Shown in pieces: positions 22,786 through 37,795 of a DNA stretch of 64,000 nt. A program made the position numbers and the translations under genes. The stretch comes from Candidatus Limnocylindrales bacterium. GTDB lineage: Bacteria > Chloroflexota > Limnocylindria > Limnocylindrales > CSP1-4. Where the stretch lies: positions 13,271-77,270 of the forward strand of contig JBBRXB010000004.1 of the NCBI GenBank assembly GCA_038248915.1. Reading direction: 5' to 3'. How positions within the stretch are numbered: position 1 is the first letter of the stretch; the number at the start of each line of letters is the position of its first letter. The notes beneath the pieces were generated by a model. It made no database searches. It was not told where the DNA came from and saw nothing but the letters and a program-made list of their open reading frames with translations.

Positions 22786-23144
22786 TCAGGCCGCGGCTGT
22801 GGCGGCCTCCGCCTCGGCGTCGTCGACGACGAGCGCCTCGTCCTCGTCATCCTCGTCGTCGTCCGACGTGCCCGGGTCGAACGCCGACTCGGGGATGGGC
22901 TCCGAGGCCGGGATCTCGCCGAGCGCCTGCGCCTGGTCCGCCAGCGAATCGGCGGCCTGCTGGGCCTCGTAGTCCTTCTTGCGCCGGCCAGACAGCATCT
23001 CGACGTGCCCGGCGACGATCTCGGTCTTCCAGTGCCGGGCGCCCTTGTCATCGTCCCACGAGCGGGTCTGGAGGCGGCCCTCGACGGCCACCTGCTGGCC
23101 CTTGCCCAGATAGCGGCCGGCGATCTCGGCCAGGCGGTCCCAGG
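22786..23144 (-). pseudogene. ssb: ssb paralogue, 3' piece (codons 60-177 of the reconstructed gene)
   Basis: Minus strand reads [50 protein letters not shown] followed by an acidic tail. SSB-like sequence stops at CCCAGG (23139-23144). The rest of track ORF 22786..23235 is not SSB-like. Confidence 0.8.
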
Positions 23145-23167
23145 TCTGACGTATACTTGGTCGTATT
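23139..23167. repeat. attL of the 12.3-kb element
   Basis: CCCAGG-tctgacgtat-ACTTGGTCGTATT. The 13-mer is the exact reverse complement of 35442-35454. Confidence 0.75.
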
Positions 23168-23196
23168 CGTCGATCCGTCAACGGAGCGAACCGAAC

Positions 23197-24462
23197 ATGA
23201 CCGCCTACGGCTACATCCGCAAGTCCGTCGTCCACGACCCGGCTCGCATGCTCTCACCCGAGATGCAAGAGGCCGCCATCAGGAAGCTCGCTGCGGCGAA
23301 CGGCGACGACGACGTGGTAATCCTCAGCGACCTCGATGTTTCGGGCCGCAAGGGCCGTTCTAGGCGCCCCGGATGGGACGAGTTGCTGCGCGCGGTCGAG
23401 GACGGCGAGTGCAAGAGCGTGTATGCGTACTCGTTGAGCCGGTTCGCCCGCAGCGTCTCGCAACTGGCCGACTTCTTCGAGTTGAGCGAGCGCCAAGGCG
23501 TCAAGGTTCGCGTCGACCGTGACCACATCGATACGTCGACCGCGACCGGGAAGCTCATAGGCAACGTCCTCGCGTCACTCGCGCAGTTCGAGGCCGATGT
23601 AGCGAGCGAGCGAGTCAAGGACGCCTTCGCGGCGAAGCGTCAGCGCGACCCCGAATGGCGCGGACCAGGAAACAGCGCATACGGCGACGAAGCGGGCGAA
23701 GACCCGCTGGTCGTGGTCGCGGCCTTCCGCGACGCGGGCAGTTTCGACGGGGCGGCGCGACTCCTCAACACGCGCGGTGTTCCAAGTCGGTTCTCGAACG
23801 GCCATCTTTGGTCCGGGAGCGTCGTGCGCGGCGTCGTCAAGCGTCACGCTCCGGATGAAGTAGGCCCGATGGTTCGTCGCGGCTCACCAGCCGGGCGCCG
23901 TTCGTTCCGCTTCTCCGGACTCGTCGAGTGCAGTACGTGTCATAAGACGCTCACCGGGTCGCGCGACACCCGGCGTGGCGACGTCCGGTATGCGTGCTCC
24001 CGAGCACGCGTGATCCCGCACGTTCGCGGTTGGGTGAACGAGTCGAAGCTGCTCCCGGTCATTGCCGCCGAAGTCGGCCACGCCGCCGTGGCGATGAAGC
24101 GACTCCAGAAGGGGAGTGCCGAGGACGACGCCGCCCTGGCCACGCTCGCCGCGAAGCGAGCGCGCGTCATCGACACGTACACGGACGGTCTCATCGACAA
24201 GGCCGAGCGCGACCGACGTCTCGCCGACATCGCCGTCGCGGAGTCGAAGCTCTCGACGCGACGATGGATCAAGCGCATCTCGCTCCCGCCCGACATCGAG
24301 ACGGGCGATCCGGCCAAGGTGAACACCTACCTCCGGAGGCTGTTCGAGCGCGTGACGGTCGACATGAGTCAGCCCGCGACGTTCGGCCCGTCGAAGTGGC
24401 TGCCGACGCTCGACTTCGAATGGCGCGACCCGTCGATGCGCGTCGAGGAGGACACCGCCTGA
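23197..24462 (+). CDS. Large serine recombinase (integrase of the 12.3-kb element)
   Basis: ATG 23197 with GGAG 10 nt upstream. Catalytic-Ser motif [27 protein letters not shown]. Cys-rich zinc ribbon [17 protein letters not shown] and a coiled-coil tail. 421 aa. Confidence 0.9.
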
Positions 24463-24482
24463 CTGTCGCCATGTAGCGACAG
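24463..24482 (+). terminator. Short hairpin after the LSR gene
   Basis: CTGTCGC-catgta-GCGACAG starts right after the TGA. No T-tract. Confidence 0.25.
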
Positions 24483-24594
24483 CACTTCATCCGGAGGGGG
24501 TTACCACCGGCCGGCGGCTTCGTTAGGTTCAACCTCGTCAGTCGTTGACGTCGCAAGGAACGACGCCGACTCGACGGGAAAGGACCCCACCGCA

Positions 24595-24978
24595 ATGACG
24601 ACCGAGAAGAAGGCCGCCCCGAAGACGTCGAAGACGGGCAACCTCGTCTTCGCCTCCGGTGCTTGTCACCACCGCAACGCCGATGGGAAGCCCGACTGCA
24701 AGAAGGCTATCTGGCTACGCGCCAGCGGCAAGCCGGTCGGCAACCTCTGTGAGACCCACGAACGCGCTTGGCGCGTCGCGGCCAGGGCTCGCTACGACGC
24801 CCGCCAGGTCGCGAAGCCCGCTGAAGTTCCCGTCGCGAAGGACGCGAAACCGCGGTCAAGCGCGAAGCCCCCGCGCGGCAAGGTTATCCCGCTGATGGCG
24901 GACGAGGCCCCGTTGGATCCGATGGAGCGCGAGATGGCAGCCGTCAAAGCGATGAAGGTCCGAAGGGTCGAAGGCTGA
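24595..24978 (+). CDS. Small basic Cys/His-containing protein, function unknown
   Basis: 127 aa. ACHHRNADGKPDCKK..LCETHERAW. High third-position GC. Sits just downstream of the LSR gene. Confidence 0.55.
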   Translation: MTTEKKAAPKTSKTGNLVFASGACHHRNADGKPDCKKAIWLRASGKPVGNLCETHERAWRVAARARYDARQVAKPAEVPVAKDAKPRSSAKPPRGKVIPLMADEAPLDPMEREMAAVKAMKVRRVEG

Positions 24979-25018
24979 CACGCTCGGCGGGGCGACGCGC
25001 AGCTCGACGGGCTCGACT

Positions 25019-25327
25019 CTACGGAGTCGGGCCCGCTTTCATGTTTGCGCGGGCGGCGTGCGCCGACCGACGGACCGCGTAGTGGTGGTCGAGAATAGCG
25101 CGGAAGCGACGCGGGTAGTCCACGCCTACATCCGGACCGGAGAAGGCCTTGTAGCTCCAGATCTTCCATTCCCTGATGTAGACCTTCTCGTTGTCCGTCC
25201 AGATGTCGTACCAGGAGCACGCCGAGCAGTTGTTCACGTCATGCGGGTGGTCCGTCGGGAGCGACTCCCATTCGGTGGGGTCGTCGTCTTCAAAAGGGCG
25301 GCCGAGGTTGACAGGAATGGTGGGCAT
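25019..25327 (-). CDS. Hypothetical protein
   Basis: ATG 25327 inside track ORF 25019..26002. 102 aa: MPTIPVNLGRPFEDDDPTEWESL..CSACSWYDIW. Only this 3' part of the long ORF has coding-like codon bias. Confidence 0.5.
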   Translation of the reverse strand: MPTIPVNLGRPFEDDDPTEWESLPTDHPHDVNNCSACSWYDIWTDNEKVYIREWKIWSYKAFSGPDVGVDYPRRFRAILDHHYAVRRSAHAARANMKAGPTP

Positions 25328-25662
25328 GCCCCCATGGTAACGGTCGCGGGGCCGTCCTCGTGACCGCCAGAGCCATTCTCCGGCCCGCTTGCGTGCGGGA
25401 CGACGCGATACGCGATAGGCGGGGAGGGGAGTCGCCGCGGCCGTTCTAGCGCCAGACAGCCGTTCACCGCGAGCCTCCTCCCCGGGTACGGGCCGGAGCG
25501 ACAACGATGGAGGTCGCGGTGATCGGTAGAAGCACGCCGGAACTGCGTCGAAACGCCGCCACGCCGATTGACTCGGACGAAGTTGCTGACTCCAACGCTG
25601 CCGTCCGCGGATGCGGGCGGTCCAGCGAGGAGAATGTCGCGCATCCTTCGGATACTGTCGAA

Positions 25663-25965
25663 CTACGCGAACCCGTCTCCGTACTGCTCGACGAGCCTGT
25701 TGAGGACCGCGCCGCGGTTGACGTACGGGTTGTCGGCCAGGACGATCAGCGCGCAAGCGACGTGCGTCCACCAGCTCGCTTCGGGCGGTCGCCCCATGCC
25801 TTGCCCGAACGTCCCCGTGCCCGGGACTCCGGCGATGGACCCGGCCTGCGCGGCTCGTGTCGTCGCGTGCCCAGTGGCCGCCGCCGGGTCGGTGTCGAAT
25901 GACCACGCCGAGTCCGCGACCATCGAGGCCGCGAACACCGCCGGGTCGACCGTGATGTCGGTCAA
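25663..25965 (-). CDS. Hypothetical protein
   Basis: 100 aa. TTG start overlaps the upstream stop. Very high third-position GC in this frame. Confidence 0.5.
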   Translation of the reverse strand: MTDITVDPAVFAASMVADSAWSFDTDPAAATGHATTRAAQAGSIAGVPGTGTFGQGMGRPPEASWWTHVACALIVLADNPYVNRGAVLNRLVEQYGDGFA

Positions 25966-26939
25966 GCCGGCACCGACGTGATCGCGTGACGGTTGTCACC
26001 ACCGGTCGCGAGACCGGGCTTCACCCCTTCGGGCTCGGCGTAGGCCGTGCCAGTTGACCGGGCGATGTCGAACGCCGCCATCTTGGCCGCCGCCGAGGCC
26101 CGGGAAGCCTCCTCCGGATGGCCGTTGCCGATGGACCCGTCGAGCGCGATGCCGAGCCCGGACGACGAGAGGACGGCGAACCGCTTCACGTCGAAGGTCG
26201 CCATCGAAGACGCGATCTCGTCCTCGACGATCTTGGCCGCTTGCCGGTTCGGGTCGGACGCTTCGAGCGCGGCCGTGACGTCAGCCTCGATGGCCGTCGT
26301 GTACCGCGCTCCCTTGTCCTTCGCGACCTCCAGAAGAAACGCCGCCCGAGCGGGTTGCCCGGCCTCCAACATCGCGGACGCTTGCTCGACGAAGGAGTCG
26401 CCATCGACTCTCGACGCGACGAGCCGAGCCCGCTCCAACTCGTCGGCCATCCGGGCCGCCGGATCGCGCTCGGTCTCGGTCTTCGCGAGGAGCGCGTTCC
26501 GCGCCTTCAGACCTTCCGTGACCGCATCGTTGAGGAGGCCGCGGGCCTTGACATCGGCCTCGCGGATCTCGGCGACGAGACGCGCCCGCTCCCGCTCGGC
26601 GAAGAGGGGAGTGATCCGCCCCTCGGCGGCTTCGACGTTGACGAGCCGAAGCTCGGCCTCGCGCTTGGCGATGCCTTCCGTGACCGCATCCAGCGCGGCC
26701 TTGAACTTGTCCTTGCTCATGTTGCCTCCGTTCAAGTTGAGCCGCTTCAATGCGGCGATTTGACCGTCGATGGCCGTGCGCCCCGCGGGCGACACGCCCG
26801 GGAGCTTCGCTTCGAGGAGCGCGACCTCCAAGTCGCGTGCCTCCGTAGGTGACAACCCGCGTTGCCACGATGACTTCGCGGGTGTTGATGCGCGGTAGGC
26901 TTCAAGTCGATGCCCGCCGACGCGGTTGGTGTGGCTCAT
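25962..26939 (-). CDS. Alpha-helical/coiled-coil hypothetical protein
   Basis: ATG 26939 preceded by AGGAGGG. An alternative internal start at 26720 (MSKDKF) also has GGAGG. Ala/Glu/Arg-rich heptad-like sequence. Confidence 0.6.
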   Translation of the reverse strand: MSHTNRVGGHRLEAYRASTPAKSSWQRGLSPTEARDLEVALLEAKLPGVSPAGRTAIDGQIAALKRLNLNGGNMSKDKFKAALDAVTEGIAKREAELRLVNVEAAEGRITPLFAERERARLVAEIREADVKARGLLNDAVTEGLKARNALLAKTETERDPAARMADELERARLVASRVDGDSFVEQASAMLEAGQPARAAFLLEVAKDKGARYTTAIEADVTAALEASDPNRQAAKIVEDEIASSMATFDVKRFAVLSSSGLGIALDGSIGNGHPEEASRASAAAKMAAFDIARSTGTAYAEPEGVKPGLATGGDNRHAITSVPA

Positions 26940-26997
26940 TTGCCCTCCTGGTTGATCGCGTCGTTGGACCGCCCGACGCTGCGGCGGTTGAGTTCCT

Positions 26998-27576
26998 TCA
27001 TGTGGTGGGGCTCCAACGCCCGGTCGCGGACGAGCCGGTGCCGTCGACGGTCCAGCGGAAGATCCCCTTGGCCGTGACAAGCTCGGGGACCGCGCCGGTG
27101 TAGGTGTCGCCGCGACGAGCGGAGCGGAGCATCGCGATGGCCGACTTGGCCTCCGTGAACGACTCCATCACCTCGGCGGCGTCGAGCTGGAACGCTTCGA
27201 GCGCGGCCAGCTTCTCCTCGACCTCGGTCAAGTCGGCCGCTCCCGGAGGCGCGACCCGATGGATGGACTCGACCATCCGCCTGATGGCCTCGACCCGCGC
27301 GGTCTTGGCCGCGGGCGACAGGGACGGGAGGTCCGCTTGAAGCCCGACCAGCAGCCCGCGGAGGAGGTCCTCATCCGTCCCTGAAGGCTCCCCGGCGGTC
27401 ACCACGGGCGGCGAAGCGGGCGGGATGACGTGCCCGTTCCGAATGTGGCGTCGCAACGCTTGCGACGACACGGCGAACGCGCCAGCAACTCGTTGAGCTG
27501 GGCGTCCCGTGTTGACCTCGGCATCGATGAGCCGTGACTGCGGATGTGAACAAATGGAGCAGACGTTCGCGCTCAC
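26998..27576 (-). CDS. HTH protein resembling actinophage small-terminase/regulator N-termini
   Basis: GTG 27576 preceded by AGGAGG. N-terminus CSICSHPQSRLIDAEVNTGRPAQRVAGAFAVSSQALRRHIRNGH (CxxC + HTH). Confidence 0.6.
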   Translation of the reverse strand: MSANVCSICSHPQSRLIDAEVNTGRPAQRVAGAFAVSSQALRRHIRNGHVIPPASPPVVTAGEPSGTDEDLLRGLLVGLQADLPSLSPAAKTARVEAIRRMVESIHRVAPPGAADLTEVEEKLAALEAFQLDAAEVMESFTEAKSAIAMLRSARRGDTYTGAVPELVTAKGIFRWTVDGTGSSATGRWSPTT

Positions 27577-27995
27577 TAGACCTCCTGTTGAACCCCGCTC
27601 ACGCGGGTGTGTGTTGAGTTGAGACCGGCCGCTCGGACGCGACCTACGTTCGGTGCGCCCGGTGTGTTCGCGCACGTTGGTGATCGCGCCTCTTCGAACG
27701 AGGGGCGTCCGGTACGGATGCACGCCTCGCGACACTTGCGCGCGTTTGTGGCTTGCGCTACCATGCGAAGCGTGGGAGTGTATACCTCGTTGAGCGTCAC
27801 GGTCATAGTTGTGCCGTCCCTCCTCTCGACGTCCGTCATCTCTCGTCCTTCGTAGGCCTATCCCATCGACGAGTGGACCAATGGTCTCCTATACGTTGGA
27901 ACACTGGTCCATTCGTCACGGTGCGTTCGCTCACGCCTTTGCGGCGTGTGCGACCGGACCGCATTCCGACGCGAGGTCTACGAGAGGTCCTCGCG

Positions 27996-29840
27996 TCAGT
28001 CCATCGGTCCATTCGTCACCTCCGGTGCGTCCGATGCGTCGTCTTCGGCGGAGCGAAGTCGGATGTCGTCGCGCCAATAGCGCCACTCGAAGCTCCGGCC
28101 GACCTTCACCTTCTCGTCGCTTCGACGAAGGAGCGTGAGCCGCATCAACTCGGCGATGCGCTTGCGGCCGTCGCCGATGCCCCACAAGACTTCGAGTTGA
28201 GCCGACGACATGCCGTCGCCGTCGCGCGGCACCCCATCGACCCACGAGAGAAGCGCCGCGTTCCGCTCGTTGGAGGAGTCCACGACCGAGTAGACGTGAC
28301 TCGCCGTGTTGTACTCGACGAGCATCGAGGTCGTTTCGAGGATCCGGCCGCGAACCGTGAGCCATCGTCGCGAGTCGAGGGGGTCCGCCGGGTTGTGGTA
28401 GGTCAGCTCGGCTTGCACGTCGCACGCCGCCGCGATGGCCCCCGAGCCTCGCGTCGCCTCACCGGCGATGCCGCCGCCCTTGCGCGTGTGGTGAACGAGG
28501 ATCACCGCCGCGTCGCGGTCAGCGAGCGCGTGTCGGATCGTCTCGACCGCGGCGGTCGTCTCGCCCGCGTCGTTCTCGTTCTCGATGCCCGCCCAGACGG
28601 CGAGCGTGTCGATGATGACGACGGCCCCGTCGTGGTTCGACACCCACCGCGACGCCGCAGCGAGGGAGTCCGCCAGACCCCAGCCCGCGCGCACGGCATC
28701 CGACCGTTGGACGACCTCCATCGCCGAGAGGCCGAATGCCTTGGTCTTGGTGACGACCGGGACGCCGTATTCCTCGGTCATCAGCAGGAGAGGCGTCCCG
28801 GGACGGACATCGAACTCGCCCAGGAACTTCTCGCCCGTCTCGGCGCATCGCGCCAGATGTCCCAGGAGGGTTGACTTGCCGCCCTTCGGCGGACCGGCGA
28901 CGACCGTCACGCCGCCGGAGTAGGCGACCGGGTAGGCGACCCACGGCACGGTGCTCGGCGTCTCGGCCACGATTTGGGCGATGGGCTTTACCACCTTGCC
29001 GACGTTGGACTCGGGGACGTCGACGTTTCCCGCGAGCACCCACTCGCGCCAGTCCTTCCCGGTCCCCGTGAGCGAGTCGTAGTCGGGCGGCACGATGCGC
29101 GCGGCGAACAGGCCCGCCGTCATCGCGTTCTCCATCGCCTTGGCCGCGCCCTTCTGCCCGGCGTCATCTGCGTCGTAGGCGACGAATACGCTCTCGACGC
29201 CGCGACGCGCCATCGAGCGGAAGTCGCTCACACTCGGCACACCCGACGCAGATCCGGCGGAGTACGCCATCTCGTAGCCGATGCCCCGCAGAGCGATGGC
29301 GTCCGACTCGCCTTCGGTGAGGAGGATGTCGACCGGCATCGCGTCGTCAAGCGGCCAGATGGCCGGGTTGGGTGAGCCGGCGGGCGACCAGCGCCGCTCG
29401 GACGAGCCCGCTTGGCGATGCTTGGCGACGCCCAGACCCGGGAAGTCGTGCGACACCCAACCATCCGCCGTCGCCGAAAGAGGGAAGTCGTCGAGGAACG
29501 CTCGTTCCACGCCGCAATAGGCGGCGTACCACCCGAGCGGGTCGGCCTTCGCGTCGGCCGGGATGGGCTTCGCCGTTGCGGACCGGCGCTTGGTCCGTGT
29601 GATGCGGATGGGCGTCGCCTCGGCGGCTTCGAGGTTCTCGACGACTTGGCGGTAACCCGCGCCACACACCGGGTTGAGGCACTTCACGAGCGTCTTGCCG
29701 GTCTTCTCCGTGATGTGGAGTGAGTCCGAGCCACCGTGAACCGGACACTCGGCGTGAACGTCACGCCGCCCGCTCGTCGAGTCATTCCAACGCGCAATAT
29801 CGAGTCGCTCTGCAAGCCAGTCGAAGTCGTGGTCGCTCAT
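27996..29840 (-). CDS. Primase-helicase fusion (zinc finger + Toprim + RepA/DnaB-like P-loop ATPase)
   Basis: Zinc finger ECPVHGGSDSLHI..CLNPVCG. Toprim LLTEGESDAIAL..AYDADDAGQKG. Walker A GPPKGGKST, VVIIDTLAVW, LVHHTRKGG. Start at ATG 29840 is uncertain; the track ORF extends to 30152. Confidence 0.85.
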   Translation of the reverse strand: MSDHDFDWLAERLDIARWNDSTSGRRDVHAECPVHGGSDSLHITEKTGKTLVKCLNPVCGAGYRQVVENLEAAEATPIRITRTKRRSATAKPIPADAKADPLGWYAAYCGVERAFLDDFPLSATADGWVSHDFPGLGVAKHRQAGSSERRWSPAGSPNPAIWPLDDAMPVDILLTEGESDAIALRGIGYEMAYSAGSASGVPSVSDFRSMARRGVESVFVAYDADDAGQKGAAKAMENAMTAGLFAARIVPPDYDSLTGTGKDWREWVLAGNVDVPESNVGKVVKPIAQIVAETPSTVPWVAYPVAYSGGVTVVAGPPKGGKSTLLGHLARCAETGEKFLGEFDVRPGTPLLLMTEEYGVPVVTKTKAFGLSAMEVVQRSDAVRAGWGLADSLAAASRWVSNHDGAVVIIDTLAVWAGIENENDAGETTAAVETIRHALADRDAAVILVHHTRKGGGIAGEATRGSGAIAAACDVQAELTYHNPADPLDSRRWLTVRGRILETTSMLVEYNTASHVYSVVDSSNERNAALLSWVDGVPRDGDGMSSAQLEVLWGIGDGRKRIAELMRLTLLRRSDEKVKVGRSFEWRYWRDDIRLRSAEDDASDAPEVTNGPMD

Positions 29841-29991
29841 CAGCCCATTCACTTTCAGCAGCCCGATACGCGGTAGGTAGGGACGGCGGGCGGGCTGAGG
29901 ACCCGCCGCCCCGTAGAGGACCCGTCCGAGTTCGCGGGTTCGGACGGCGTGAACATACGCGACCCGCCGGATCGCGCGTGTCGCTGGCCGG

Positions 29992-30216
29992 TCATAGCCC
30001 GGTCCCGCAGTTGGGGCAGACCGCGCCCTCGGTGAGCGACACGGCGTGAAGGTCGCATCCGTGCCGGGCGCAGACATCGCGACCGTCGAGGACGGGCTCG
30101 GTACACGGCTCGATGGACCCGCGCGGGCCGCGCGCCGGGTCGGCCCGTTCATCGGGGCTGTTCGGCCAGCCGACGCCGGTGTGGACGTAGCCAGTGCAAG
30201 CGAGACGGTCCATCAA
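29992..30216 (-). CDS. Small Cys-rich (zinc-ribbon-like) protein
   Basis: 74 aa. Start overlaps the XRE gene stop. High third-position GC. C-terminal CPNCG. Confidence 0.5.
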   Translation of the reverse strand: MMDRLACTGYVHTGVGWPNSPDERADPARGPRGSIEPCTEPVLDGRDVCARHGCDLHAVSLTEGAVCPNCGTGL

Positions 30217-30545
30217 GCCGTCTTCTGGGCGGCGCTCGCCGCCTTCTTCCGCGCGGCGTAGATGACCGCCAGGTCGGCCTCACCTTCGGAGGCCATCTTG
30301 GCTCGACTCGCGGCGATGCCCTCGATGGCTTCGAGGATCTTGATGACGTTCTTCGCCTTGATGTTCACGGCGCGCGCGCGGCGCTCGACCATCGAGACGT
30401 AGCCCTGCGTGACGAACAGCTTTTGGGCCAACTCTGCTTGGCTGACCGCGTTGACCTTCCGGTATGCGGTGACCTCGGCGAGATCGTAGACCGGACCGTA
30501 AGCAGCTTCGCCGACGGGCTGCGGTCGGGTGATGTTGTTGCTCAT
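30213..30545 (-). CDS. XRE/Cro-CI-type HTH transcriptional regulator
   Basis: 110 aa. HTH VSQAELAQKLFVTQGYVSMVER. First gene of the minus-strand replication module. Confidence 0.8.
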   Translation of the reverse strand: MSNNITRPQPVGEAAYGPVYDLAEVTAYRKVNAVSQAELAQKLFVTQGYVSMVERRARAVNIKAKNVIKILEAIEGIAASRAKMASEGEADLAVIYAARKKAASAAQKTA

Positions 30546-30552
30546 GATGTGA

Positions 30553-30592
30553 TAATACGTCTACACATATACCACGGCGAATGTAGGTATTA
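30553..30592. promoter_or_regulatory. Candidate operator (imperfect inverted repeat) in an A/T-rich divergent promoter region
   Basis: TAATACGTCTACA (30553-30565) and TGTAGGTATTA (30582-30592). On the minus strand a TATTAT hexamer lies 6 nt before the XRE ATG, suggesting a leaderless transcript. On the plus strand there is a TGtGATAAT extended -10. Confidence 0.4.
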
Positions 30593-30842
30593 CATCGAGA
30601 GCCCGCAAGACGGTCACGGACGCCGCTTGCGCGTGATCGCGCGTCGTCGAGTCGCCTCAGGCCGGACGGGCCGGAGAACGAGCCGGAGAGTCACGGGCGC
30701 GATAGGTCGAACCGTCCGCGTAAGTCGCAGCTAAGCGCTGATGCCTACTCTCCGAGATGGGCCGCGCTCCGCGCCCGGAAGGTCGATCTCGGGCTCGCCC
30801 GACCAGCCCGTTCCGGGGCGTCGCGGCCCTTATGCTTGAGGC

Positions 30843-31871
30843 ATGGCAGGGAAGGAGTCGTTGGTCCGGGCTAGCCGGGCCAAGAACGACGAGTTCTACA
30901 CCCAGTTGGTCGACGTCGAGGCCGAACTACGGCTCTACCGCGACCAGTTCCGCGGCAGGGTCGTGCTCTGCAACTGCGACGACCCGTATGAGTCTGCCTT
31001 CTTCAAGTATTTCGCGATGAACTTCAATCATCTCGGCCTGAAGAAGCTCATCACTACGAGCTACAGCGGGAGCCCGATCACCGGCGAGCAACTCCGGTTG
31101 CTGGACGTAGCCGGGATGCCCGACAACGCCCCCGAGAAGCCAGCCTACCGGGTCGAGATCAGCGAAGTTCCGGACGCCAACGAGGACGGGGCTACCGACC
31201 TACAGGACGTCGAGTACCTGCTGAAGCACGAGCGCAACGTCGTCAGCCTCTTGGCGGAGGGCGGAGACTTTCGCTCCGCTGAGTGCGTCGCTTCGTTAGA
31301 CGAGGCCGACATCGTTGTCACGAACCCACCGTTCTCGCTGTTTCGCGAGTACGTTGGCCAACTCGTGGGGCATGGCAAGCAGTTCCTCATCCTCGGCAAC
31401 CTCAACGCCATCACGTACAAGGAAATCTACTCACTCATAAGGGACGGACAGCTCTGGCTCGGTCACCGGACCGGCGGGGAAAAGTGGTTCCGCGTGCCCG
31501 ACGACTACGGCCACACGACCGACAAGGGGAAGATCAAAGTGGAGGCCGGGGTGAGGTACCTAGCCATGAAGAACATGGCGTGGTTCACCAACCTGGACAC
31601 CACAAAGCGTCATGAGGCCATGACGCTGTACAGGCACTACACGCCTGACGAGTACCCGACCTACACGAACTATCCGGCCATCGAGGTCGCCAAGGTTTCG
31701 GACATCCCGATGGACTACAGCGGGGCCATGGGCGTCCCGATCACCTTCCTGGACAAGTACAACCCGGAGCAGTTCGAGATCCTGGGGTTCCGCAAAGGCG
31801 ATGACGGCAAGGACCTCTCGATCAAGGGGAAGAGCTTGTACTTCCGAATCCTCATCCGGGCCCGTCCATGA
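30843..31871 (+). CDS. N6-adenine DNA methyltransferase (EcoRI-methylase-like family)
   Basis: 342 aa. N-terminal KNDEFYT. Catalytic motif IV VVTNPPFSLF. Confidence 0.8.
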   Translation: MAGKESLVRASRAKNDEFYTQLVDVEAELRLYRDQFRGRVVLCNCDDPYESAFFKYFAMNFNHLGLKKLITTSYSGSPITGEQLRLLDVAGMPDNAPEKPAYRVEISEVPDANEDGATDLQDVEYLLKHERNVVSLLAEGGDFRSAECVASLDEADIVVTNPPFSLFREYVGQLVGHGKQFLILGNLNAITYKEIYSLIRDGQLWLGHRTGGEKWFRVPDDYGHTTDKGKIKVEAGVRYLAMKNMAWFTNLDTTKRHEAMTLYRHYTPDEYPTYTNYPAIEVAKVSDIPMDYSGAMGVPITFLDKYNPEQFEILGFRKGDDGKDLSIKGKSLYFRILIRARP

Positions 31872-32962
31872 AGATCGACCTGAAGGCGATCACGGTCCGT
31901 GAGGTCGCCGAGGGCTATGGCGACAACGACGAGGAAGGTGTCGTCGGATACGCCGGGCGGCTCGACATCCGGCCCAAGTACCAGCGGGAGTTCGTCTACG
32001 ACGAGAAGAAGCGGAACGCCGTTATCGACACCATTCGCAAGGGCTTCCCGCTCAACGTCATGTACTGGGTGGTCACGGACGAAGGCACCTTCGAGGTGAT
32101 GGACGGCCAGCAGCGGACCATCTCCTTCTGCCAGTACGTGAACGGCGACTTCTCGGTCCCGGTAGACGGCCACCCGATGGCGTTCCACAACTTGTCGAAG
32201 ACGCTCCAGGACCAGATCCTCGACTACACCCTGATGGTCTACCACTGCTCCGGCAGTGACCAGGAGAAGCTCGACTGGTTCCGCATCATCAACATCGCGG
32301 GCGAACGCCTCACCGAGCAGGAGCTGCGAAACGCGGTCTACACAGGACCGTGGCTCTCCCACGCCAAGACGATCTTCTCCAAGTCCAACTGCGCGGCGTA
32401 CCTCCTCGGCAACAAGTACGTCAGCGGCTCGCCAATCCGGCAGGAGTACCTGGAGACCGCTATCTCGTGGCTATCGGGCGGGAAGGTCGAGCAGTACATG
32501 TCGGCCCATCAGCACGACCCGAACGCCAACGAGCTGTGGGCCTACTTCCAAGCGGCGATCGCGTGGGTGACGCTGACCTTCACCACGTACCGCAGCGAGT
32601 TGAAGGGCATCGACTGGGGCACCCTCTACAACCAGTTCAAGGACGGTCTCTTCGACACCGACCAGCTGGAAGGTGAGATCAAGGTGCTGATGATCGACGA
32701 CGACGTCACGCGCAAGAAGGGCGCCTACCAGTACGTCCTGACCCACGACGAGAAGTACCTCGCGATCCGCCAGTTCACGTCAGGGATGAGACGCGCTGCG
32801 TACGAGCGACAGGGCGGAATCTGCCCCGTCTGCAAGAAGCACTATGAGATTGAGGCGATGGAGGCCGACCACATCACGCCGTGGTCGAAGGGCGGACGGA
32901 CCAGCGCGGAGAACTGCCAGATGCTGTGTCTCGAGGACAACCGGCGCAAAGGTGCGGTCTAG
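31868..32962 (+). CDS. DUF262 (ParB/GmrSD N-terminal-like) + HNH endonuclease fusion
   Basis: ATG overlaps the methyltransferase stop (ATGA). DUF262 hallmark VMDGQQRT. C-terminal HNH CPVCKK..EADHITPWSKGGRTSAENCQMLCLEDNRRKG. Confidence 0.8.
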   Translation: MKIDLKAITVREVAEGYGDNDEEGVVGYAGRLDIRPKYQREFVYDEKKRNAVIDTIRKGFPLNVMYWVVTDEGTFEVMDGQQRTISFCQYVNGDFSVPVDGHPMAFHNLSKTLQDQILDYTLMVYHCSGSDQEKLDWFRIINIAGERLTEQELRNAVYTGPWLSHAKTIFSKSNCAAYLLGNKYVSGSPIRQEYLETAISWLSGGKVEQYMSAHQHDPNANELWAYFQAAIAWVTLTFTTYRSELKGIDWGTLYNQFKDGLFDTDQLEGEIKVLMIDDDVTRKKGAYQYVLTHDEKYLAIRQFTSGMRRAAYERQGGICPVCKKHYEIEAMEADHITPWSKGGRTSAENCQMLCLEDNRRKGAV

Positions 32963-32976
32963 GCTGAACTGAGCGT

Positions 32977-32986
32977 CCCCCCCCCC
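32977..32986. repeat. C10 homopolymer
   Basis: Ten consecutive C starting 15 nt after the HNH gene stop. A C6 run follows at 33018-33023. Confidence 0.9.
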
Positions 32987-33183
32987 GGCCTCGGCGAGCG
33001 CGTCGTCGGAAGAGCGGCCCCCCGCGCTCCGCCCCGGAGGAACGATCTCGGGCATGGCCTGACCAGCCCACTCCGGGGGCGACGCGGTCCAAGGAGTCGA
33101 GCAAGGGTCGCCGCCCGAACCGCACGGAACGGACGTAGGACTCCGTGTTCATGCCGTTCCCGCTCCTCCCAGCGCCAACTCGC

Positions 33184-33213
33184 TTGACGACCGCGGCCGC
33201 GCCATGCTATATC
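33184..33213 (+). promoter_or_regulatory. Candidate promoter of the three-gene cassette
   Basis: TTGACG (33184-33189), 18-nt spacer, TATATC (33208-33213). Confidence 0.3.
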
Positions 33214-33349
33214 GAGCTCATCAATCCGTCACGCCACCATACCGGCGGCGACGGCCAACATGGCAAGACCGCGCGGTCGTGCGTGTGGACGATATGCGGG
33301 TCGAACATGAGCTGGCACGGCCCGCAGATGGAACGGAGTAGTGGAGTCC

Positions 33350-33964
33350 ATGAGTGAACCGGAACCGAGCAAGGAGTCGGTCGCCGACATCCTTGCCGAA
33401 GCCATTGCCGCCGTGAATGCGGCCGGTGTCCCAGCCGAGCTGAAGGAGGCGGCCTTCTCAAAGGCGGTCGATGTCATCATGGCGAGGCGTACGGCCGAGA
33501 CGGCCGGCAGCATGGGGACGGCGGGCGTTGCCCATGCCCCGGCCGTCACGCCCGGCGCGACGGCGCTCACCGAGGGGGACGTGGTCGGACTCATCGCCGC
33601 TCGGCTCCGCCTCGACCGCGAGGTGGTCGGCGAGGTGTTCGATGAGACGGACGGGAAGCTCGACGTCATCGTGCCGCCGCGCAAACTGGCCGCGGGCAAG
33701 GCTCCCGCCGTAAAGCAGCTTGCCCTCCTTGTGGCCTCAGCCCGGCAGGCTGCGGGCATCGAGGAGTGGACGGACGCCGACGACATCCGCCAGTTCGTGG
33801 AGGAGTTCAAGAGGTACGACCAGGCCAACTTCGCATCGACACTCAAGCAGATGGACGACATCTTCCGTATCAAGCAGACGGGACGCAAGATCACCGTCAG
33901 GTTGGGGCGGCCCGGTTGGGACCGGGCGGCCGAGCTGGTCACCACGCTCGCGGGGGAGGGATAA
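33350..33964 (+). CDS. Cassette protein 1, unknown function (C-terminal winged-helix-like module)
   Basis: ATG 33350 with GGAG 11 nt upstream; the track ORF begins at 33341. 204 aa. C-terminus ..KQMDDIFRIKQTGRKITVRLGRPGWDRAAELV. Confidence 0.6.
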   Translation: MSEPEPSKESVADILAEAIAAVNAAGVPAELKEAAFSKAVDVIMARRTAETAGSMGTAGVAHAPAVTPGATALTEGDVVGLIAARLRLDREVVGEVFDETDGKLDVIVPPRKLAAGKAPAVKQLALLVASARQAAGIEEWTDADDIRQFVEEFKRYDQANFASTLKQMDDIFRIKQTGRKITVRLGRPGWDRAAELVTTLAGEG

Positions 33965-33966
33965 CC

Positions 33967-34629
33967 ATGACGGACGAGACGAAGGCTACGGCCTCGGTCG
34001 TCGCCGAGCCCGACGATGACGACGCCGAGCTTGAGGCGATGGGCGCGATCACGAAGGCGCTCAAGCCGCTGACGCCGGCTACGCGGCAGCGCGTCATCGG
34101 TTGGGCTGCCGGCAAGTACGGCGCGGCTATCGCGTCAGCAGCGACCGGACTTCCTGGTCTTGCAGTCGGCGGACTCGGCGGCCGGGCCGCTTCGGAGTTG
34201 CCCGTCGCGGCCAAGAAGCGGCGCAAGACGGTCCGAAAGAACGGCGTCGGGGCCGTCGCGCCTGCGGTCGGCAACAAGCCGAAGGGAGCGCCGGGTCACG
34301 ACAAGACCCTGAACCTCCACCCGGCGGACAGGCAGTCGTTCAAAGACTTCGTGGGCGAGAAGAAGCCGCGGGACAACTTCGTGGAGCACAACGTCGTGGC
34401 GGTCTACTGGCTGGGGCAGACTGCCGAGATCACGGACGTGACGACGGACATGGTCTTCACGTGCTATCGGGGCGTGTCGTGGAAGCTCCCGGGCGATCTT
34501 CGGAACAGCCTCGCCAAGACGGCCCACGACAAAGGCTGGCTGGACACGAAGGACTCCGACGACATCAAGATCACACCATCAGGGCTGAACTTCGTTGAAC
34601 GTGACCTCCCGCCGAAGACCAAGGCGTAG
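33967..34629 (+). CDS. Cassette protein 2, unknown function (acidic N-terminus, basic KKRRK linker, C-terminal winged-helix-like module)
   Basis: ATG 33967, 2 nt after the upstream TAA. 220 aa. C-terminus NSLAKTAHDKGWLD..IKITPSGLNFVERDL. Confidence 0.65.
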   Translation: MTDETKATASVVAEPDDDDAELEAMGAITKALKPLTPATRQRVIGWAAGKYGAAIASAATGLPGLAVGGLGGRAASELPVAAKKRRKTVRKNGVGAVAPAVGNKPKGAPGHDKTLNLHPADRQSFKDFVGEKKPRDNFVEHNVVAVYWLGQTAEITDVTTDMVFTCYRGVSWKLPGDLRNSLAKTAHDKGWLDTKDSDDIKITPSGLNFVERDLPPKTKA

Positions 34630-35443
34630 GCGCCCTGCGGTCGCCATCGCGGCGGCCGCCCCGACCACGCCGACGATCACTCCGGCGACCGCGCTCGTTG
34701 CGGTCCCGCCGTCGCTGCGCGACCCCTTGATCGCCGCGCTCAACGAAATCGCCACGAACTTCGCCGCTCACAAGTGGGAGCCGTCCGAGTTGAACGGGGG
34801 CAAGCTCTGCGAGACGGCCTACACCATCCTCCGAAGCCATGTGGACGGGACATGGGCCGCCAAGCCGAACAAACCGCGTGACTTCGTGACCGCGTGTCGC
34901 GACTTCGAGAACGCGGACAAGACGAAGTTCCCGCAGTCTGTTCGGGTCACGACTCCACGCTTGCTGATGGCGCTCTACGAGATCCGCAACAACCGCGGCG
35001 TTGGCCACGCCGGTGGCGACGTAGACGCCAACCACATGGACGCCACTCTCGTGTTGACCGGGGCGAAGTGGGTCGTCGCGGAGTTGATCCGCATCTTCCA
35101 CGGCGTGACTACGGCGGAGGCGACGGCCATAGTTGACGCACTTGTCGAGCGGGTCGTCCCGACCATCTGGACCATTGGTGCAACCCGTCGGGTGCTAGCA
35201 ACCGGCCTGTCGATGAAGGACAAGACCCTGCTCTTGCTCTACGCGTCGGCGGATTGGGTCAGCGAAGCGGACCTCGTCGGCGCCATCGAGCACTCGAACG
35301 CCTCCGTCTACCGACGAGATGTACTCGCGACGGCCCACAAGGACCGGCTCATCGAGTACGAAGCCACGAACCGCCGGGCGCACATCAGCCCGCTGGGTGT
35401 GGACTACGTGGAGAAGCGACTCGGGGCGCACCTCGTCGCCTAA
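34595..35443 (+). CDS. Cassette protein 3: HEPN-like (Abi_C/AbiJ-type RNxxGxxH motif) N-domain + winged-helix C-domain
   Basis: LMALYEIRNNRGVGHAGG (motif at 34985-35008). C-terminus VLATAHKDRLIEY..AHISPLGVDYVEKRL parallels cassette protein 2. Start uncertain (TTG 34595, GTG 34601 or a later TTG). The TAA stop overlaps the attR 13-mer. Confidence 0.6.
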   Translation: MNVTSRRRPRRRRPAVAIAAAAPTTPTITPATALVAVPPSLRDPLIAALNEIATNFAAHKWEPSELNGGKLCETAYTILRSHVDGTWAAKPNKPRDFVTACRDFENADKTKFPQSVRVTTPRLLMALYEIRNNRGVGHAGGDVDANHMDATLVLTGAKWVVAELIRIFHGVTTAEATAIVDALVERVVPTIWTIGATRRVLATGLSMKDKTLLLLYASADWVSEADLVGAIEHSNASVYRRDVLATAHKDRLIEYEATNRRAHISPLGVDYVEKRLGAHLVA

Positions 35444-35470
35444 TACGACCAAGTGGACGCGAAACCCAGG
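35442..35470. repeat. attR of the 12.3-kb element
   Basis: AATACGACCAAGT-ggacgcgaaa-CCCAGG. Mirror image of attL: 13-mer, 10-nt spacer, core. Confidence 0.75.
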
Positions 35471-35561
35471 CGACGACGGGATGGTACTCCGAGCGCTCCT
35501 TGCCGCCACCGATGAACTCATTGCTCGCCACGGTGAACGTCGTCATTGACTCAGTTACCCC
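35465..35561 (-). pseudogene. ssb: ssb paralogue, middle piece (codons 29-60)
   Basis: Minus strand reads G-VTESMTTFTVASNEFIGGGKERSEYHPVVAW. Bounded by ACCCC (35557-35561) and CCCAGG (35465-35470). An in-frame TGA lies just upstream at 35571-35573. Confidence 0.75.
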
Positions 35562-36847
35562 ATCGGTACATCATGTCGGCGTGAGACGAGCCGTCGCGTA
35601 TCTCCGCAAGTCGAGGGTTGACCCGGGCACGCGTGACGCGTCATGGGAGACCCAGGAGGCCAAGGTTCGCGCCTTGGCCGCCCGCCACGGGGACACCGAC
35701 CTTGAGCTAATGAGTGATTGGGGTCGGTCTGGACGGGGAGAGAAGACCCGTCTACGACCCGAGTATCGGCGCCTCCGGGGGATGATCGAGGCAGATGAGG
35801 TATCCGTCCTCTACAGCTACAGTCTGAGCCGGCTGGCGCGGTCACTCACAGAGTACGCATCGCTCGCCGAGTTGTGCCGGGAGCACGGTGTCCAGGTTCG
35901 GCTCGACAAAGAGGGGGAATTCGACTACGGCTCAGCGTCCGGTCGATTCACGGTCGGCATCTTGGCGTTGCTTGCCCAAATGGAAGCTGAATTGGCGCAG
36001 GAGCGCGCACGCGACACCGTCCAGGCGCGGCGTGCCCGCGGCGATCACATTGGGTCAGCCGGCTACGGGAAACGCCTCCACAACGGAACGTTAGAGGATG
36101 ATCCGCGCGAGAGCGTCGAAGTCGTGGCGGCTGCGTATCGGGAGGCCGGAGGATTCGCCGGGGCCGCCCGCATCTTGAACACCAAAGAGGTGCGTTCGAA
36201 GTTCGGCAAGAAGTGGAGCGGGACCACGGTCCGCCGCGTCCTAACCACCGCGGCGCCTCAGGAGTTGGCGGGACGGCCCGTGGAGGCCCGTGTCAAGCAG
36301 CGCGGCACGTTCACGCTGTCACGCATTCTCCGTTGTCCCTGCGGGCAGATCATGACCGGGCGACACGGCCGCGGCTCCCGCAAATACGGACTCTACGGCC
36401 CCTACGCGAGCTACCAATGCTACCGGGGCCGATACGAGTCGAACCACCCGCGGCCATACATGGTCAGCGAACGCGAGATCTTGCCGTGGGTTGTGGCCGA
36501 GGCCGACCGACTCCGCGTACCACATCACAAGTTCGATTCCGACGCCGATCCGGATCGGCGGACGGCTCTGGAAGAACGACGCAGACGCGTTATCGACAAC
36601 TACGAGGACGGTGTGATCGAGAAGTCCGAACGCGATGCAAAGCTCGCGGCGATCATCACCGAGCTGGAAGGTCTCGCGGCCGCCGAGCGTGCCGACGTCA
36701 TCCCGCCAACGATCGATTGGACGTGGGAGCCGGCCATCATCAACGAGGTATTGCGAGCGCTCTGGAACGTTGTGGAACTCGGGCCCGACCTCCGCCCAGT
36801 CCGCGCGACCTGGTTGGTGCCGGAGTGGCGAGCGTGAGACCCACCCC
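35557..36847. mobile_element. 1.29-kb insertion consisting only of a large serine recombinase gene
   Basis: Identical ACCCC at 35557-35561 and 36843-36847, in the same codon phase of ssb. 1286 bp between equivalent positions. The LSR ORF fills 35581-36837. Confidence 0.65.
35581..36837 (+). CDS. Large serine recombinase (second paralogue)
   Basis: GTG 35581 is the first start inside the insertion. VAYLRKSR catalytic Ser, YSYSLSRLARS, GSASGRF. Zinc ribbon CPCGQIMTG..YQCYRGR. 418 aa. Colinear with the first LSR by eye. Confidence 0.85.
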   Translation: MRRAVAYLRKSRVDPGTRDASWETQEAKVRALAARHGDTDLELMSDWGRSGRGEKTRLRPEYRRLRGMIEADEVSVLYSYSLSRLARSLTEYASLAELCREHGVQVRLDKEGEFDYGSASGRFTVGILALLAQMEAELAQERARDTVQARRARGDHIGSAGYGKRLHNGTLEDDPRESVEVVAAAYREAGGFAGAARILNTKEVRSKFGKKWSGTTVRRVLTTAAPQELAGRPVEARVKQRGTFTLSRILRCPCGQIMTGRHGRGSRKYGLYGPYASYQCYRGRYESNHPRPYMVSEREILPWVVAEADRLRVPHHKFDSDADPDRRTALEERRRRVIDNYEDGVIEKSERDAKLAAIITELEGLAAAERADVIPPTIDWTWEPAIINEVLRALWNVVELGPDLRPVRATWLVPEWRA

Positions 36848-36931
36848 GATGGGTGTATAATGCCACTCTATCTGCCCGCGTCGCGCGACCCATCTGATGG
36901 GACTAACCGTCGGACCAGCGATTGGACCCAC
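36843..36931 (-). pseudogene. ssb: ssb paralogue, 5' piece (codons 1-29)
   Basis: GTG 36931, then MGPIAGPTVSPIRWVARRGQIEWHYTPIG-V. The ..YTPxG matches the SSB beta1-beta2 region. The N-terminal similarity is weak. Confidence 0.6.
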
Positions 36932-36963
36932 GCGGTCAACGGAACAAAGCTCGGTCAGGTCGT

Positions 36964-37012
36964 GACCCGGTTTCTTTAGGCGAACTGTGTTCGCCCGCGA
37001 GAAAGCCGGGTC
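36964..37012. promoter_or_regulatory. Nested imperfect palindrome between the ssb start and the divergent small gene
   Basis: GACCCGG-TTTCT-..-GGCGAAC-tgt-GTTCGCC-..-AGAAA-GCCGGGTC. Ends 5 nt before the ATG at 37018. Confidence 0.4.
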
Positions 37013-37017
37013 TCTTC

Positions 37018-37266
37018 ATGAATCGAGAACCTAAACACGTTCGGGACCTACAGCGGCAAGGCGGGAGGGAGGGGGCGAGGCGACGTTGGGGCTCGCACGT
37101 GCCTCAAACGGTCAGGATGGGTGATCTCAGCTCCGAGCAGCGGCGTCTGGTCGTCGCCCTCATCGAGGCAGCACGCGCCTCGCGAGCAGAGGCCGCCTCG
37201 GCGACCATTGAGACGGCCGAGACGGCCGAGACGGAGGGTCACGGCAATGACCGCCCGACAGACTGA
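37018..37266 (+). CDS. Small hypothetical protein
   Basis: 82 aa: MNREPKHV..GDLSSEQRRLVVALIEAARASR. Contains a 9-bp tandem repeat (gagacggcc) encoding ETAETAETE. Start uncertain. Confidence 0.45.
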   Translation: MNREPKHVRDLQRQGGREGARRRWGSHVPQTVRMGDLSSEQRRLVVALIEAARASRAEAASATIETAETAETEGHGNDRPTD

Positions 37267-37531
37267 GGCTAGCAGACAGCACGTCGGTCGCTTCGAGCAG
37301 ACCTGCCCGGCTTGCGGGATCTCGGAAGGCGCTGGTTCGTATTGCACGTCCTGCCTGTGCCCGATTTCCGCGGTTCACTGGCACGCCGCGATCCGCTCGG
37401 CTAGGCAGATTGCCACTACTGAGTGGATGACGGCTCACAGACCAAGGATTCGCCGAGAGCCGGGGCCTACAGCCCACAAGCCTCGGACTCGCACGCCTGC
37501 GATCCCGCGCCGCCAGAGGCATCGTCGATGA
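37247..37531 (+). CDS. Small zinc-ribbon protein
   Basis: 94 aa. CPACG..CTSCLC. Overlaps both neighbours (operon-like). Confidence 0.45.
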   Translation: MTARQTEASRQHVGRFEQTCPACGISEGAGSYCTSCLCPISAVHWHAAIRSARQIATTEWMTAHRPRIRREPGPTAHKPRTRTPAIPRRQRHRR

Positions 37532-37785
37532 GCATCAAATTGATCAGCCGTGCCTGGGAGGTGAACGGGATCAGCATGGCCGCGAAATTGCTCCTGATTG
37601 CTCTGGCGGACCACGCCCACGACGACGGCGGGAGCTGCTACCCGTCCTCCCAAAGGTTGGCAAATCGTCTCGGTTGCTCACGGCGGCACATCTGGACCCT
37701 ACTCCAAGAGCTCGAGCGGGCCGGCCTCGTGGCCAGACGTTCGGGAGGCCATCGCTCGACCAACCAGTACACCTTGCGGCTTTGA
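37528..37785 (+). CDS. Helix-turn-helix protein (HTH_36/DnaD-like; replication or regulatory)
   Basis: ATG overlaps the upstream TGA. 85 aa. AKLLLIALADHAHDDGGSCYPSSQRLANRLGCSRRHIWTLLQELERAGLV. Confidence 0.65.
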   Translation: MSIKLISRAWEVNGISMAAKLLLIALADHAHDDGGSCYPSSQRLANRLGCSRRHIWTLLQELERAGLVARRSGGHRSTNQYTLRL

Positions 37786-37795
37786 AACGCCGAGC

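Follow-up and report, generated by a model that had tools for sequence, protein, structure and literature searches.

Phage satellites are, to the best of our knowledge, known almost exclusively from Proteobacteria and Firmicutes and, more recently, from a few Actinobacteria, and our literature searches found neither a satellite paper mentioning Chloroflexi or Chloroflexota nor any description of the element family treated here. We analyzed a stretch of 64,000 nucleotides (hereafter the window; contig JBBRXB010000004.1 of assembly GCA_038248915.1, positions 13,271 to 77,270) whose host belongs to the Limnocylindrales within the Chloroflexota and is not an actinobacterium. At window positions 23139-35470 it carries a 12.3-kb element in which an integrase, a regulator, a primase-helicase, a small helix-turn-helix (HTH) protein, and an accessory block follow each other in this order. 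Based on the terminase genes found in the same gene neighborhood in its relatives, and with no virion or conjugation gene recognized among its own open reading frames (ORFs), we lean slightly toward reading it as a satellite resembling phage-inducible chromosomal islands (PICIs) that would bring its own specificity factor of the small terminase (TerS) type and use the large terminase (TerL) and the capsids of a helper phage. With a similarly guarded preference, we regard it as an intact member of an undescribed family of integrative, self-replicating elements of ca. 10 to 13 kb in Chloroflexota.

PICIs are defined by an integrase, a regulator, a primase-replicase, TerS, and accessory genes in the absence of structural or lysis genes, and their median size is 9.5 kb (PMC10085698). 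The element is of comparable size (12.3 kb), has its integrase at one end beside attL, shows a similar order of functions, and likewise has no structural or lysis genes (PMC10085698), and its Toprim plus AAA_25 replicase would be a functional analog of the PICI primase-replicase module. A variant without TerL would have to rely on the TerL of its helper, as is the case for the Staphylococcus aureus pathogenicity islands (SaPIs). Unlike PICIs, it encodes a serine and not a tyrosine integrase, an XRE-type regulator that is co-directional with the replication operon, and a TerS candidate in form of a zinc-binding HTH (Zn-HTH) protein that matches no TerS profile. Furthermore, it has no homolog of Cpm, Ppi, Ccm, or Rpp and no match to the capsid morphogenesis gene, which is optional in Gram-positive PICIs, its host is from a different phylum (Chloroflexota), and its dependence on a helper is one that we infer.

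Capsid-forming PICIs (cfPICIs) include TerL among their core components, together with HNH and TerS (PMC10085698). Similarly, relatives of the element encode TerL and several of them also an HNH or endonuclease VII-type nuclease and a TerS-like protein, but no capsid, portal, protease, or head-tail connector is found in any member examined, and TerL is split in most. The element in the window itself differs from cfPICIs by having no capsid, portal, connector, or TerL gene. A satellite-encoded TerL without capsid fits neither PICIs nor cfPICIs, and we know of no described satellite that carries its own large terminase but no capsid. If true, the combination of integrase, replicase, and phage terminase module without capsid genes would widen the known strategies of hijacking. 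The preliminary description of this locus had drawn a parallel to both PICIs and P4-type satellites. The former part gains from the terminase synteny of the relatives and the missing virion and conjugation genes, while the latter falls away because a generic primase-helicase is all that is shared, with no match to Psu, Sid, Delta, or Ash in Pfam or PHROGs. Unlike actinomycete integrative and conjugative elements (AICEs) or other conjugative or mobilizable elements, the element has no FtsK/TraB, relaxase, or type IV secretion system (T4SS) gene among its ORFs.

The ca. 10-kb phiRv1 carries a large serine recombinase (LSR), a primase-type replicase, and phage packaging genes including those for a capsid and a prohead protease, and it integrates into REP13E12 repeats. 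Judged by this description, to which our comparison is confined, the element differs from phiRv1 by having no capsid or prohead protease and by targeting ssb. The phiRv1/phiRv2-type elements of Mycobacterium tuberculosis are classed as PICI-like by SatelliteFinder, which predicts such satellites in mycobacteria (PMC10085698), and others have been isolated in Streptomyces and Mycolicibacterium, such as MiniFlayer and MulchRoom (PMC10690885) and the EPIPs (PMC12822802). The earlier statement that satellites are not described in high-GC lineages is thus outdated. Marine integrative mobile elements that are packaged in virions (VEIMEs) and tycheposons are small, encode primase/helicases, TerS homologs, motor-like ATPases, and HNH nucleases, and carry restriction-modification (R-M) or abortive infection cargo (PMC9618062). 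Unlike the element, which is known from its sequence, VEIMEs are defined by their presence in virus particles, come from other lineages, and mostly use tyrosine integrases.

Genes of the element and the packaging genes of its relatives

Genes were called by frame analysis of the GC content at third codon positions (GC3), needed to sort true genes from many spurious ORFs, together with hidden Markov models (HMMs), and the ORFs were searched against four HMM libraries (Pfam, PHROGs, NCBIfam, and PADLOC). Outside the cargo described further below, the element comprises the following features.

23197-24462, plus strand: LSR (integrase), 421 aa; Resolvase 2e-29, Zn_ribbon_recom, phrog_95 integrase 1.3e-55
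24595-24978, plus strand: small basic Cys/His protein, 127 aa; no family match
25019-25339, minus strand: small ORF, 106 aa, last of the minus-strand operon; GC3 frame signal, no family match
25340-25662: non-coding stretch containing nested inverted repeats (25420-25435/25469-25484 and 25460-25472/25514-25526)
25663-25965, minus strand: small ORF, 100 aa; GC3 0.90
25962-26939, minus strand: all-alpha protein, 325 aa, signature gene of the element family
26998-27576, minus strand: zinc-stabilized HTH protein (CxxC...HxxxxH), 192 aa; TerS-like by synteny and fusion
27576-27839, minus strand: doubtful ORF, 87 aa; fails the GC3 filter, no family match
27996-29840, minus strand: primase-helicase, 614 aa; Toprim_2 2.5e-8, AAA_25 2.5e-22, phrog_239 primase/helicase
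29992-30216, minus strand: Cys-rich protein, 74 aa; GC3 0.85
30213-30545, minus strand: XRE-type HTH regulator, 110 aa, at the head of the replication/packaging operon; HTH_3 4.4e-4 (weak)
30546-30842: intergenic control region from which the regulator operon and the cargo operon diverge

All ORFs of the element are intact with strong GC3 bias, except for the doubtful ORF at 27576-27839. The gene list of the preliminary description was borne out by these calls, with the correction that the XRE gene, formerly thought to lie divergent from the replication operon, stands at its head. Searches of the four libraries matched none of the ORFs to families of capsid, portal, terminase, tail, lysis, relaxase, T4SS, or FtsK/TraB genes, in line with the preliminary description, which had recognized no capsid, portal, large terminase, tail, or conjugation gene; holin and connector genes are equally absent from the matches in Pfam, PHROGs, and NCBIfam, and no partition gene was detected. 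The regulator has weak matches to PHROG regulators besides its weak XRE/HTH_3 match and none to AlpA or MerR. The start of the primase-helicase gene was taken at the ATG at 29840, though the frame stays open to 30152.

Relatives of the element, for which we give locus numbers (L), were studied in their gene contexts on metagenome contigs and in genomes. Many of them encode Terminase_6N proteins that match the terminase large subunit family phrog_7579 (4e-35). In their ATPase part, they share 39-51% identity with the TerL of Thermus phage Riverbug and Meiothermus phage MMP17 (415-417 aa) over TerL residues 3-238. A partner gene of ca. 210 aa overlaps the ATPase gene by ATGA, aligns to TerL residues ca. 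250-410, and shows a weak full-length Terminase_6C match and a match to phrog_27743. Because these two proteins align to successive regions of TerL, a phage TerL is, by alignment, divided between two genes in most of the TerL-carrying members, one for the ATPase and one for the nuclease. An own TerL is present in L012, L029, L017, L018, L001, L031-L034, and L044; in L044 (G358:C2, ca. 6400-11200), with the order Zn-HTH, endonuclease VII, and TerL, the latter lies in a 449-aa open frame and may be unsplit. The same genome, G358, carries a different element of the superfamily as well (L018 on contig C8). A second TerL match in G358 was considered as a helper prophage and rejected as such because it proved to be a further element of this superfamily.

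The Zn-HTH protein is connected to these terminases by position and by fusion. Its first 45-50 residues, with invariant C6, C9, G24, H44, and H49, are common to the homologs in relatives and phages. In seven of the relatives examined, the domain directly precedes TerL or is joined to it: It forms the N-terminus of the TerL ATPase fusion proteins in L012 and L029 and is encoded as a standalone protein of 160-250 aa directly upstream of TerL in L017, L018, and L031-L033. As a standalone protein it is also encoded upstream of TerL in L044, whose copy is 34% identical to the one in the window over 143 aa. Phages MMP7, MMP17, and Riverbug have a Zn-HTH gene that overlaps the TerL start, though these are complete phages of 33-34 kb in which a one-piece TerL of 415 aa precedes the genes for portal, head morphogenesis, protease, and major head proteins, and their examined parts contain no homolog of the all-alpha protein. 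The Riverbug gene in question (5463-5945) was deposited as hypothetical. Since the domain is fused to TerL in L012 and L029, the upstream gene would seem to encode a DNA-recognition partner of TerL, and given this fusion and the translational coupling with TerL in elements and real phages alike, the Zn-HTH protein of the window is best read as a specificity subunit of the small terminase type. The preliminary description, which had called it TerS-like, is therefore supported on synteny and fusion with a phage-type TerL, including that of Thermus and Meiothermus phages, and not on any TerS profile or fold match.

Neither structural nor conjugation genes were found in any of the relatives examined. 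In tblastn searches, the portal, head-morphogenesis, protease, and major head proteins of MMP17 and Riverbug had no match in any relative locus, and the 27 proteins flanking L001, L017, L018, and L012 fall solely into cellular families, among them tRNA synthetases, ComEC/ComEA, and the DNA polymerase III delta subunit. Across a sample of 401 genomes of the phylum, 8 have TerL genes with the ATPase part only, which at 43-55% identity to Riverbug TerL rank above the full-length TerLs of prophages (30-38% identical); examples are G087:C27:4388-5101, G146:C12:21978-22685, and G213:C8:258039-258710. Of four such loci that were retrieved, three show a Zn-HTH gene followed by a split TerL and two have a tyrosine-integrase match, and L031 also encodes an 866-aa prim-pol/helicase. 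Because the all-alpha family was detected in only 3 of the same 401 genomes, elements with a split TerL are, by these counts, more widespread than that family.

The all-alpha protein and the layout without TerL

The all-alpha protein marks the family to which the element belongs. A word-based search found just two homologs of it, as alanine-rich words saturate the index, and none of the Zn-HTH protein, but an exhaustive HMMER search of a representative library revealed 78 cluster representatives of 250-330 aa. Their alignment is too variable for pattern scans of sequence collections. With this alignment as input, AlphaFold2 (AF2) predicted a model made up of helices only (pLDDT 89), which gave nothing below E = 0.2 with Foldseek against PDB and BFVD; ClyA and MIC60 were dismissed as fold relatives, being generic helical bundles. 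The family profile had no meaningful match among PDB sequences and PHROGs, and neither 50,697 phage records nor 72,556 plasmid records gave a tblastn match. Scans of viral contigs with the all-alpha, Zn-HTH, and primase-helicase proteins revealed no close relatives. The protein thus has neither a capsid nor a portal fold and appears to be restricted to these elements; its absence from phage and plasmid records would be expected of a satellite-specific factor. It is a candidate for an element-specific helper-hijack factor. An exact 17-nt repeat lies within its gene (26512-26528 and 26674-26690).

These features also bear on the idea that the element is a tiny unconventional virus or prophage whose proteins without known relatives, including the all-alpha protein, would be novel structural proteins. 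Several ORFs do lack a recognizable family, but 12.3 kb with ca. 15 genes, one third of them cargo, leave no room for a tailed virion, the helical bundle of the all-alpha model is neither an HK97 nor a jelly-roll fold, and the tailed-phage terminases of the relatives depend on a portal and a capsid, neither of which is encoded by any relative. We therefore consider this explanation very improbable.

The all-alpha gene occupies the same position in L012, L017, L018, L001, L026, L029, and L042, and the members of the family are elements of ca. 10-13 kb with integrase, replicase, packaging genes, and cargo. The TerL-carrying L012 and L029 begin with an LSR, small Cys proteins, a Prim-Pol, an AAA_25 helicase, and endonuclease VII, followed by a Terminase_6N protein of 314-321 aa, a protein of 208-238 aa, the all-alpha protein, small ORFs, and methyltransferase cargo. 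In L017, L018, and L001/L002, the latter from Chloroflexia metagenome-assembled genomes (MAGs), a tyrosine integrase replaces the LSR and the central order is unchanged. At or beside the position of the doubtful ORF, between replicase and Zn-HTH/TerL, endonuclease VII is encoded in L012, L029, and L044. Several smaller genes are shared as well: Proteins similar to the 74-aa Cys-rich protein precede the replicase in L012 and L026, a homolog of the 100-aa ORF comes after the all-alpha gene in L029 (10956-11231; 59% identity over 37 aa), and the primase-helicase is 38% identical to that of L001/L002 and 36% to that of L026. The basic Cys/His protein is kept beside the LSR in relatives, with homologs in L026, L042, L012, and L029 that share invariant Cys24 and Cys52, and is a candidate for a recombination directionality factor.

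The element's arrangement without TerL is found again in L026 (LSR 66% and all-alpha protein 39% identical), where a primase-helicase, a 159-aa CxxC-HTH protein, and the all-alpha protein follow in the same order and the basic Cys protein adjoins the LSR, and in L025 (LSR 46%, all-alpha protein 44% identical) as far as its short contig shows. L042 of the same genus (G001:C10, 1-8890; LSR ca. 72% identical) carries an AAA_25 replicase helicase, the all-alpha protein, the basic Cys protein, and an LSR; no TerL match and no called CxxC-HTH gene were seen on this contig, which begins within the element. Its LSR aligns in two frames with a switch near 8494-8497, reflecting either a frameshift by decay or an assembly error. 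Because the TerL-less layout recurs in L026 and L025, two fully readable and diverged relatives, and the ORFs of the element are intact, this layout is, to judge from these sequences, maintained and not accidental.

Alternatively, a TerL-carrying family member could have been decaying into the present element, now immobile, which the host would keep for the benefit of its R-M and HEPN cargo or out of addiction to it. The endonuclease VII and split TerL of L012, L029, L017, L018, and L001 are indeed missing at the corresponding place, congeners at the same site show decay (the LSR of L042 in two frames and the 4.8-kb insert of L041, which has no LSR), and no sign of excision was seen in assembled contigs. 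Against this stand the intact ORFs with their strong codon bias, perfect att sites, a clean gap of 58 bp between the Zn-HTH and all-alpha genes without any terminase remnant, and the fact that L026 and L025 preserve the TerL-less order with proteins that diverge by 35-60%, a sign of a maintained subfamily. We thus regard decay as a rather improbable explanation.

Weighing a possible satellite lifestyle

If the element is a satellite that depends on a helper's TerL and capsids, infection by or induction of a helper phage would switch on the XRE-controlled operon, and the LSR would excise the element, probably with the adjacent basic Cys/His protein as directionality factor. The excised element would be replicated by its primase-helicase and its DNA marked by the Zn-HTH protein, which would recruit a large terminase, either that of the helper in the TerL-less variant or their own in TerL-carrying relatives. 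The 12.3-kb DNA would then be packaged into capsids made by the helper, with the all-alpha protein probably manipulating the helper's head assembly or packaging motor, and the R-M and HEPN cargo would guard host and element against other phages.

Several observations weigh against this scenario. The element has neither TerL nor an HNH or endonuclease VII packaging nuclease, and its regulator gene runs in the same direction as the replication operon, which sets it apart from Stl of the SaPIs. The Zn-HTH protein matches no TerS profile in Pfam, PHROGs, NCBIfam, or PDB, its AF2 model is confident for the N-terminal HTH domain of 50 aa alone and weak for the rest, and Foldseek with this low-confidence model returned nothing significant, just HTH matches of 37 residues. 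Its phage homologs weakly match the PHROG annotations "DNA binding protein" and "late transcriptional activator", and the Riverbug record (L021) gives the name TerS to another gene, of 134 aa, that follows TerL (7301-7705). No capsid-redirecting gene is recognizable, and neither fold nor sequence comparisons matched the all-alpha protein to a known redirection protein. The fold and profile searches that the preliminary description had proposed for 25962-26939 and 26998-27576 accordingly came back without a TerS, scaffold, or capsid-size-redirection match. With regard to a helper, genes for a phage terminase, an HK97-type capsid, or a Mu-like head were not found elsewhere in the MAG (72% complete), and tblastn gave no match in this genome to the portal, head-morphogenesis, protease, and major head proteins of MMP17 and Riverbug. 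Finally, sequencing depth is flat at ca. 20x over host and element in the single sediment metagenome run in which the sequence is present (run X1), and no contig with attP or an empty attB was present among the assembled Logan contigs of this run, where rare forms would escape.

Much of this could also be expected of a helper-independent, non-phage island that integrates and replicates, such as an integrated plasmid or a mobilizable island, with the Zn-HTH protein as a transcription regulator and the all-alpha protein in element housekeeping. Transfer, if any, would occur by conjugative helpers, vesicles, or transformation, and the terminases of the relatives would be an unrelated, acquired module. 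That only an HTH fold and no TerS family is recognized in the Zn-HTH protein, that its phage homologs have weak matches to transcriptional activators or DNA-binding proteins, that coverage is flat and no helper was found, and that TerL-less variants let the element type persist without a terminase all agree with such an island. However, no relaxase, T4SS, FtsK/TraB, or partition gene was detected in the element, and both replicase and all-alpha protein are without plasmid relatives. The Zn-HTH domain is linked to packaging by its fusion to the TerL ATPase and by the fixed place of its gene ahead of TerL in elements and phages, and the all-alpha gene always lies downstream of the packaging genes. 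We therefore view a non-phage island as unlikely, though a more serious contender than a decayed remnant.

The satellite reading can be extended to a broader proposal that we put forward tentatively, at a little under even chances: The elements would constitute the first satellite family recognized in Chloroflexota, characterized by a Zn-HTH analog of TerS, an optional, capsid-less split TerL, and a satellite-only all-alpha hijack factor, and the subfamily of the window would have given up TerL, parasitize the helper's motor, and repeatedly target one codon of ssb. It offers three testable new types of proteins in form of the TerS analog, the split TerL, and the element-only all-alpha protein. 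If true, it would also mean that such elements are vehicles of R-M and HEPN defense genes in uncultured bacteria of soils and sediments.

Insertion into ssb, cargo genes, and neighboring islands

Both ends of the element carry the core CCCAGG, at 23139-23144 and 35465-35470, and the recombination sites and target gene are arranged as follows.

22786-23144, minus strand: C-terminal piece of host ssb up to the stop codon; outside the element, target gene
23139-23167: attL with core CCCAGG (23139-23144), 10-bp spacer, and 13-bp arm ACTTGGTCGTATT (23155-23167)
35442-35470: attR with 13-bp arm AATACGACCAAGT (35442-35454), 10-bp spacer, and core CCCAGG (35465-35470)

The two arms form a perfect 13-bp inverted repeat, each 10 bp inside its core, so that attP is symmetric. 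Outside the cores, the minus strand encodes an ssb interrupted after ...HPVVAW (at a W|D codon, ssb residues 44/45). When the flanks are joined over one core, the resulting attB of 96 nt is identical at 77-84 positions to the uninterrupted ssb of four genomes of the same genus, with the match running unbroken through the junction. We conclude from this continuity that the segment is a real insertion of ca. 12,326 bp, which by its sequence arose through site-specific recombination. The boundaries 23139-35470 given in the preliminary description are thus confirmed by cores, inverted arms, and the rebuilt attB. With Resolvase and Zn-ribbon domains, short att sites around a central CCCAGG, and a symmetric attP, the element has the properties of an LSR element, and its simple attP together with a conserved attB in ssb makes the integrase a well-defined candidate for tool kits. 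The possibility that ssb itself is part of another mobile element was rejected, since 35 of 41 congeners carry the gene, mostly intact.

The same junction in ssb is occupied by at least three more LSR elements, L025, L042, and L012 (the latter on its ssb C-terminal fragment), and the LSR is 61-72% identical to those of related elements at this site. At the same codon (residues 44/45), another genome of the genus carries a 4.8-kb insert (L041; G026:C3, 13898-18720) with no recognizable serine recombinase and no homolog of the genes of the window element; this insert could represent a remnant without LSR or an element of another kind.

The cargo occupies the distal end on the plus strand.

30843-31871, plus strand: EcoRI-type N6-adenine methyltransferase (type II M subunit); PF13651 2e-130, PADLOC MTase_II 1.7e-120
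31868-32962, plus strand: DUF262 (GmrSD_N) plus HNH nuclease; PF03235 4.7e-18, HNH 1.8e-12, PADLOC REase_II 3.6e-146
33341-33964, 33970-34629, and 34595-35443, plus strand: three-gene cassette

The methyltransferase and nuclease genes are adjacent and overlap by 4 nt, and their family matches identify the pair as a type II R-M system, in agreement with the methyltransferase and DUF262-HNH cargo noted previously. The three-gene cassette has no match in Pfam, PADLOC, or NCBIfam, but the HEPN-like motif RNNRGVGH in its last protein suggests that it is probably cargo of the abortive infection type. Methyltransferase or R-M cargo recurs at the distal end of relatives. The GC content of the R-M genes is 0.60-0.62, compared to ca. 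0.67 for the element and 0.70-0.74 for core genes of the window.

Among minor features of the element, an exact 14-nt direct repeat, GGTCCATTCGTCAC (27906-27919 and 28006-28019), brackets the stop codon of the primase-helicase gene. A repeat scan found no convincing iterons and no pac-like array, and a scan of the window from 22 to 47 kb found no Rfam family. One break in the Logan contigs of run X1 falls ca. 10 nt short of attL and another within the gene of the second LSR (window 23107-23131 and 36027-36055). These contigs differ from the MAG by one T>C in the all-alpha gene (26883) and two compensating 1-nt indels in the intergenic region that follows the restriction endonuclease gene (32977 and 33017). 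Apparent joints between these contigs were rejected as signs of excision because they are chance overlaps of 21-22 nt, none of them at att sites.

A second LSR island of ca. 9.9 kb (ca. 35544-45425) interrupts the same ssb a few codons upstream, with TGAACGTCGT present at both of its ends (35534-35543 and 45416-45425). It encodes an LSR, HTH_36, SHOCT, and RadC proteins, a tyrosine recombinase, and a fusion of methyltransferase and Mrr. The N-terminal piece of ssb, which reads ...SDKSVTTF, lies on the minus strand immediately to the right of 45425. Right of the split ssb, window positions 45500-49600 are low in GC content and comprise ORFs of unknown function and two transposase genes of the IS110 family, one of them fragmentary, before metabolic genes follow; this segment is probably more mobile-element debris at the same hotspot.

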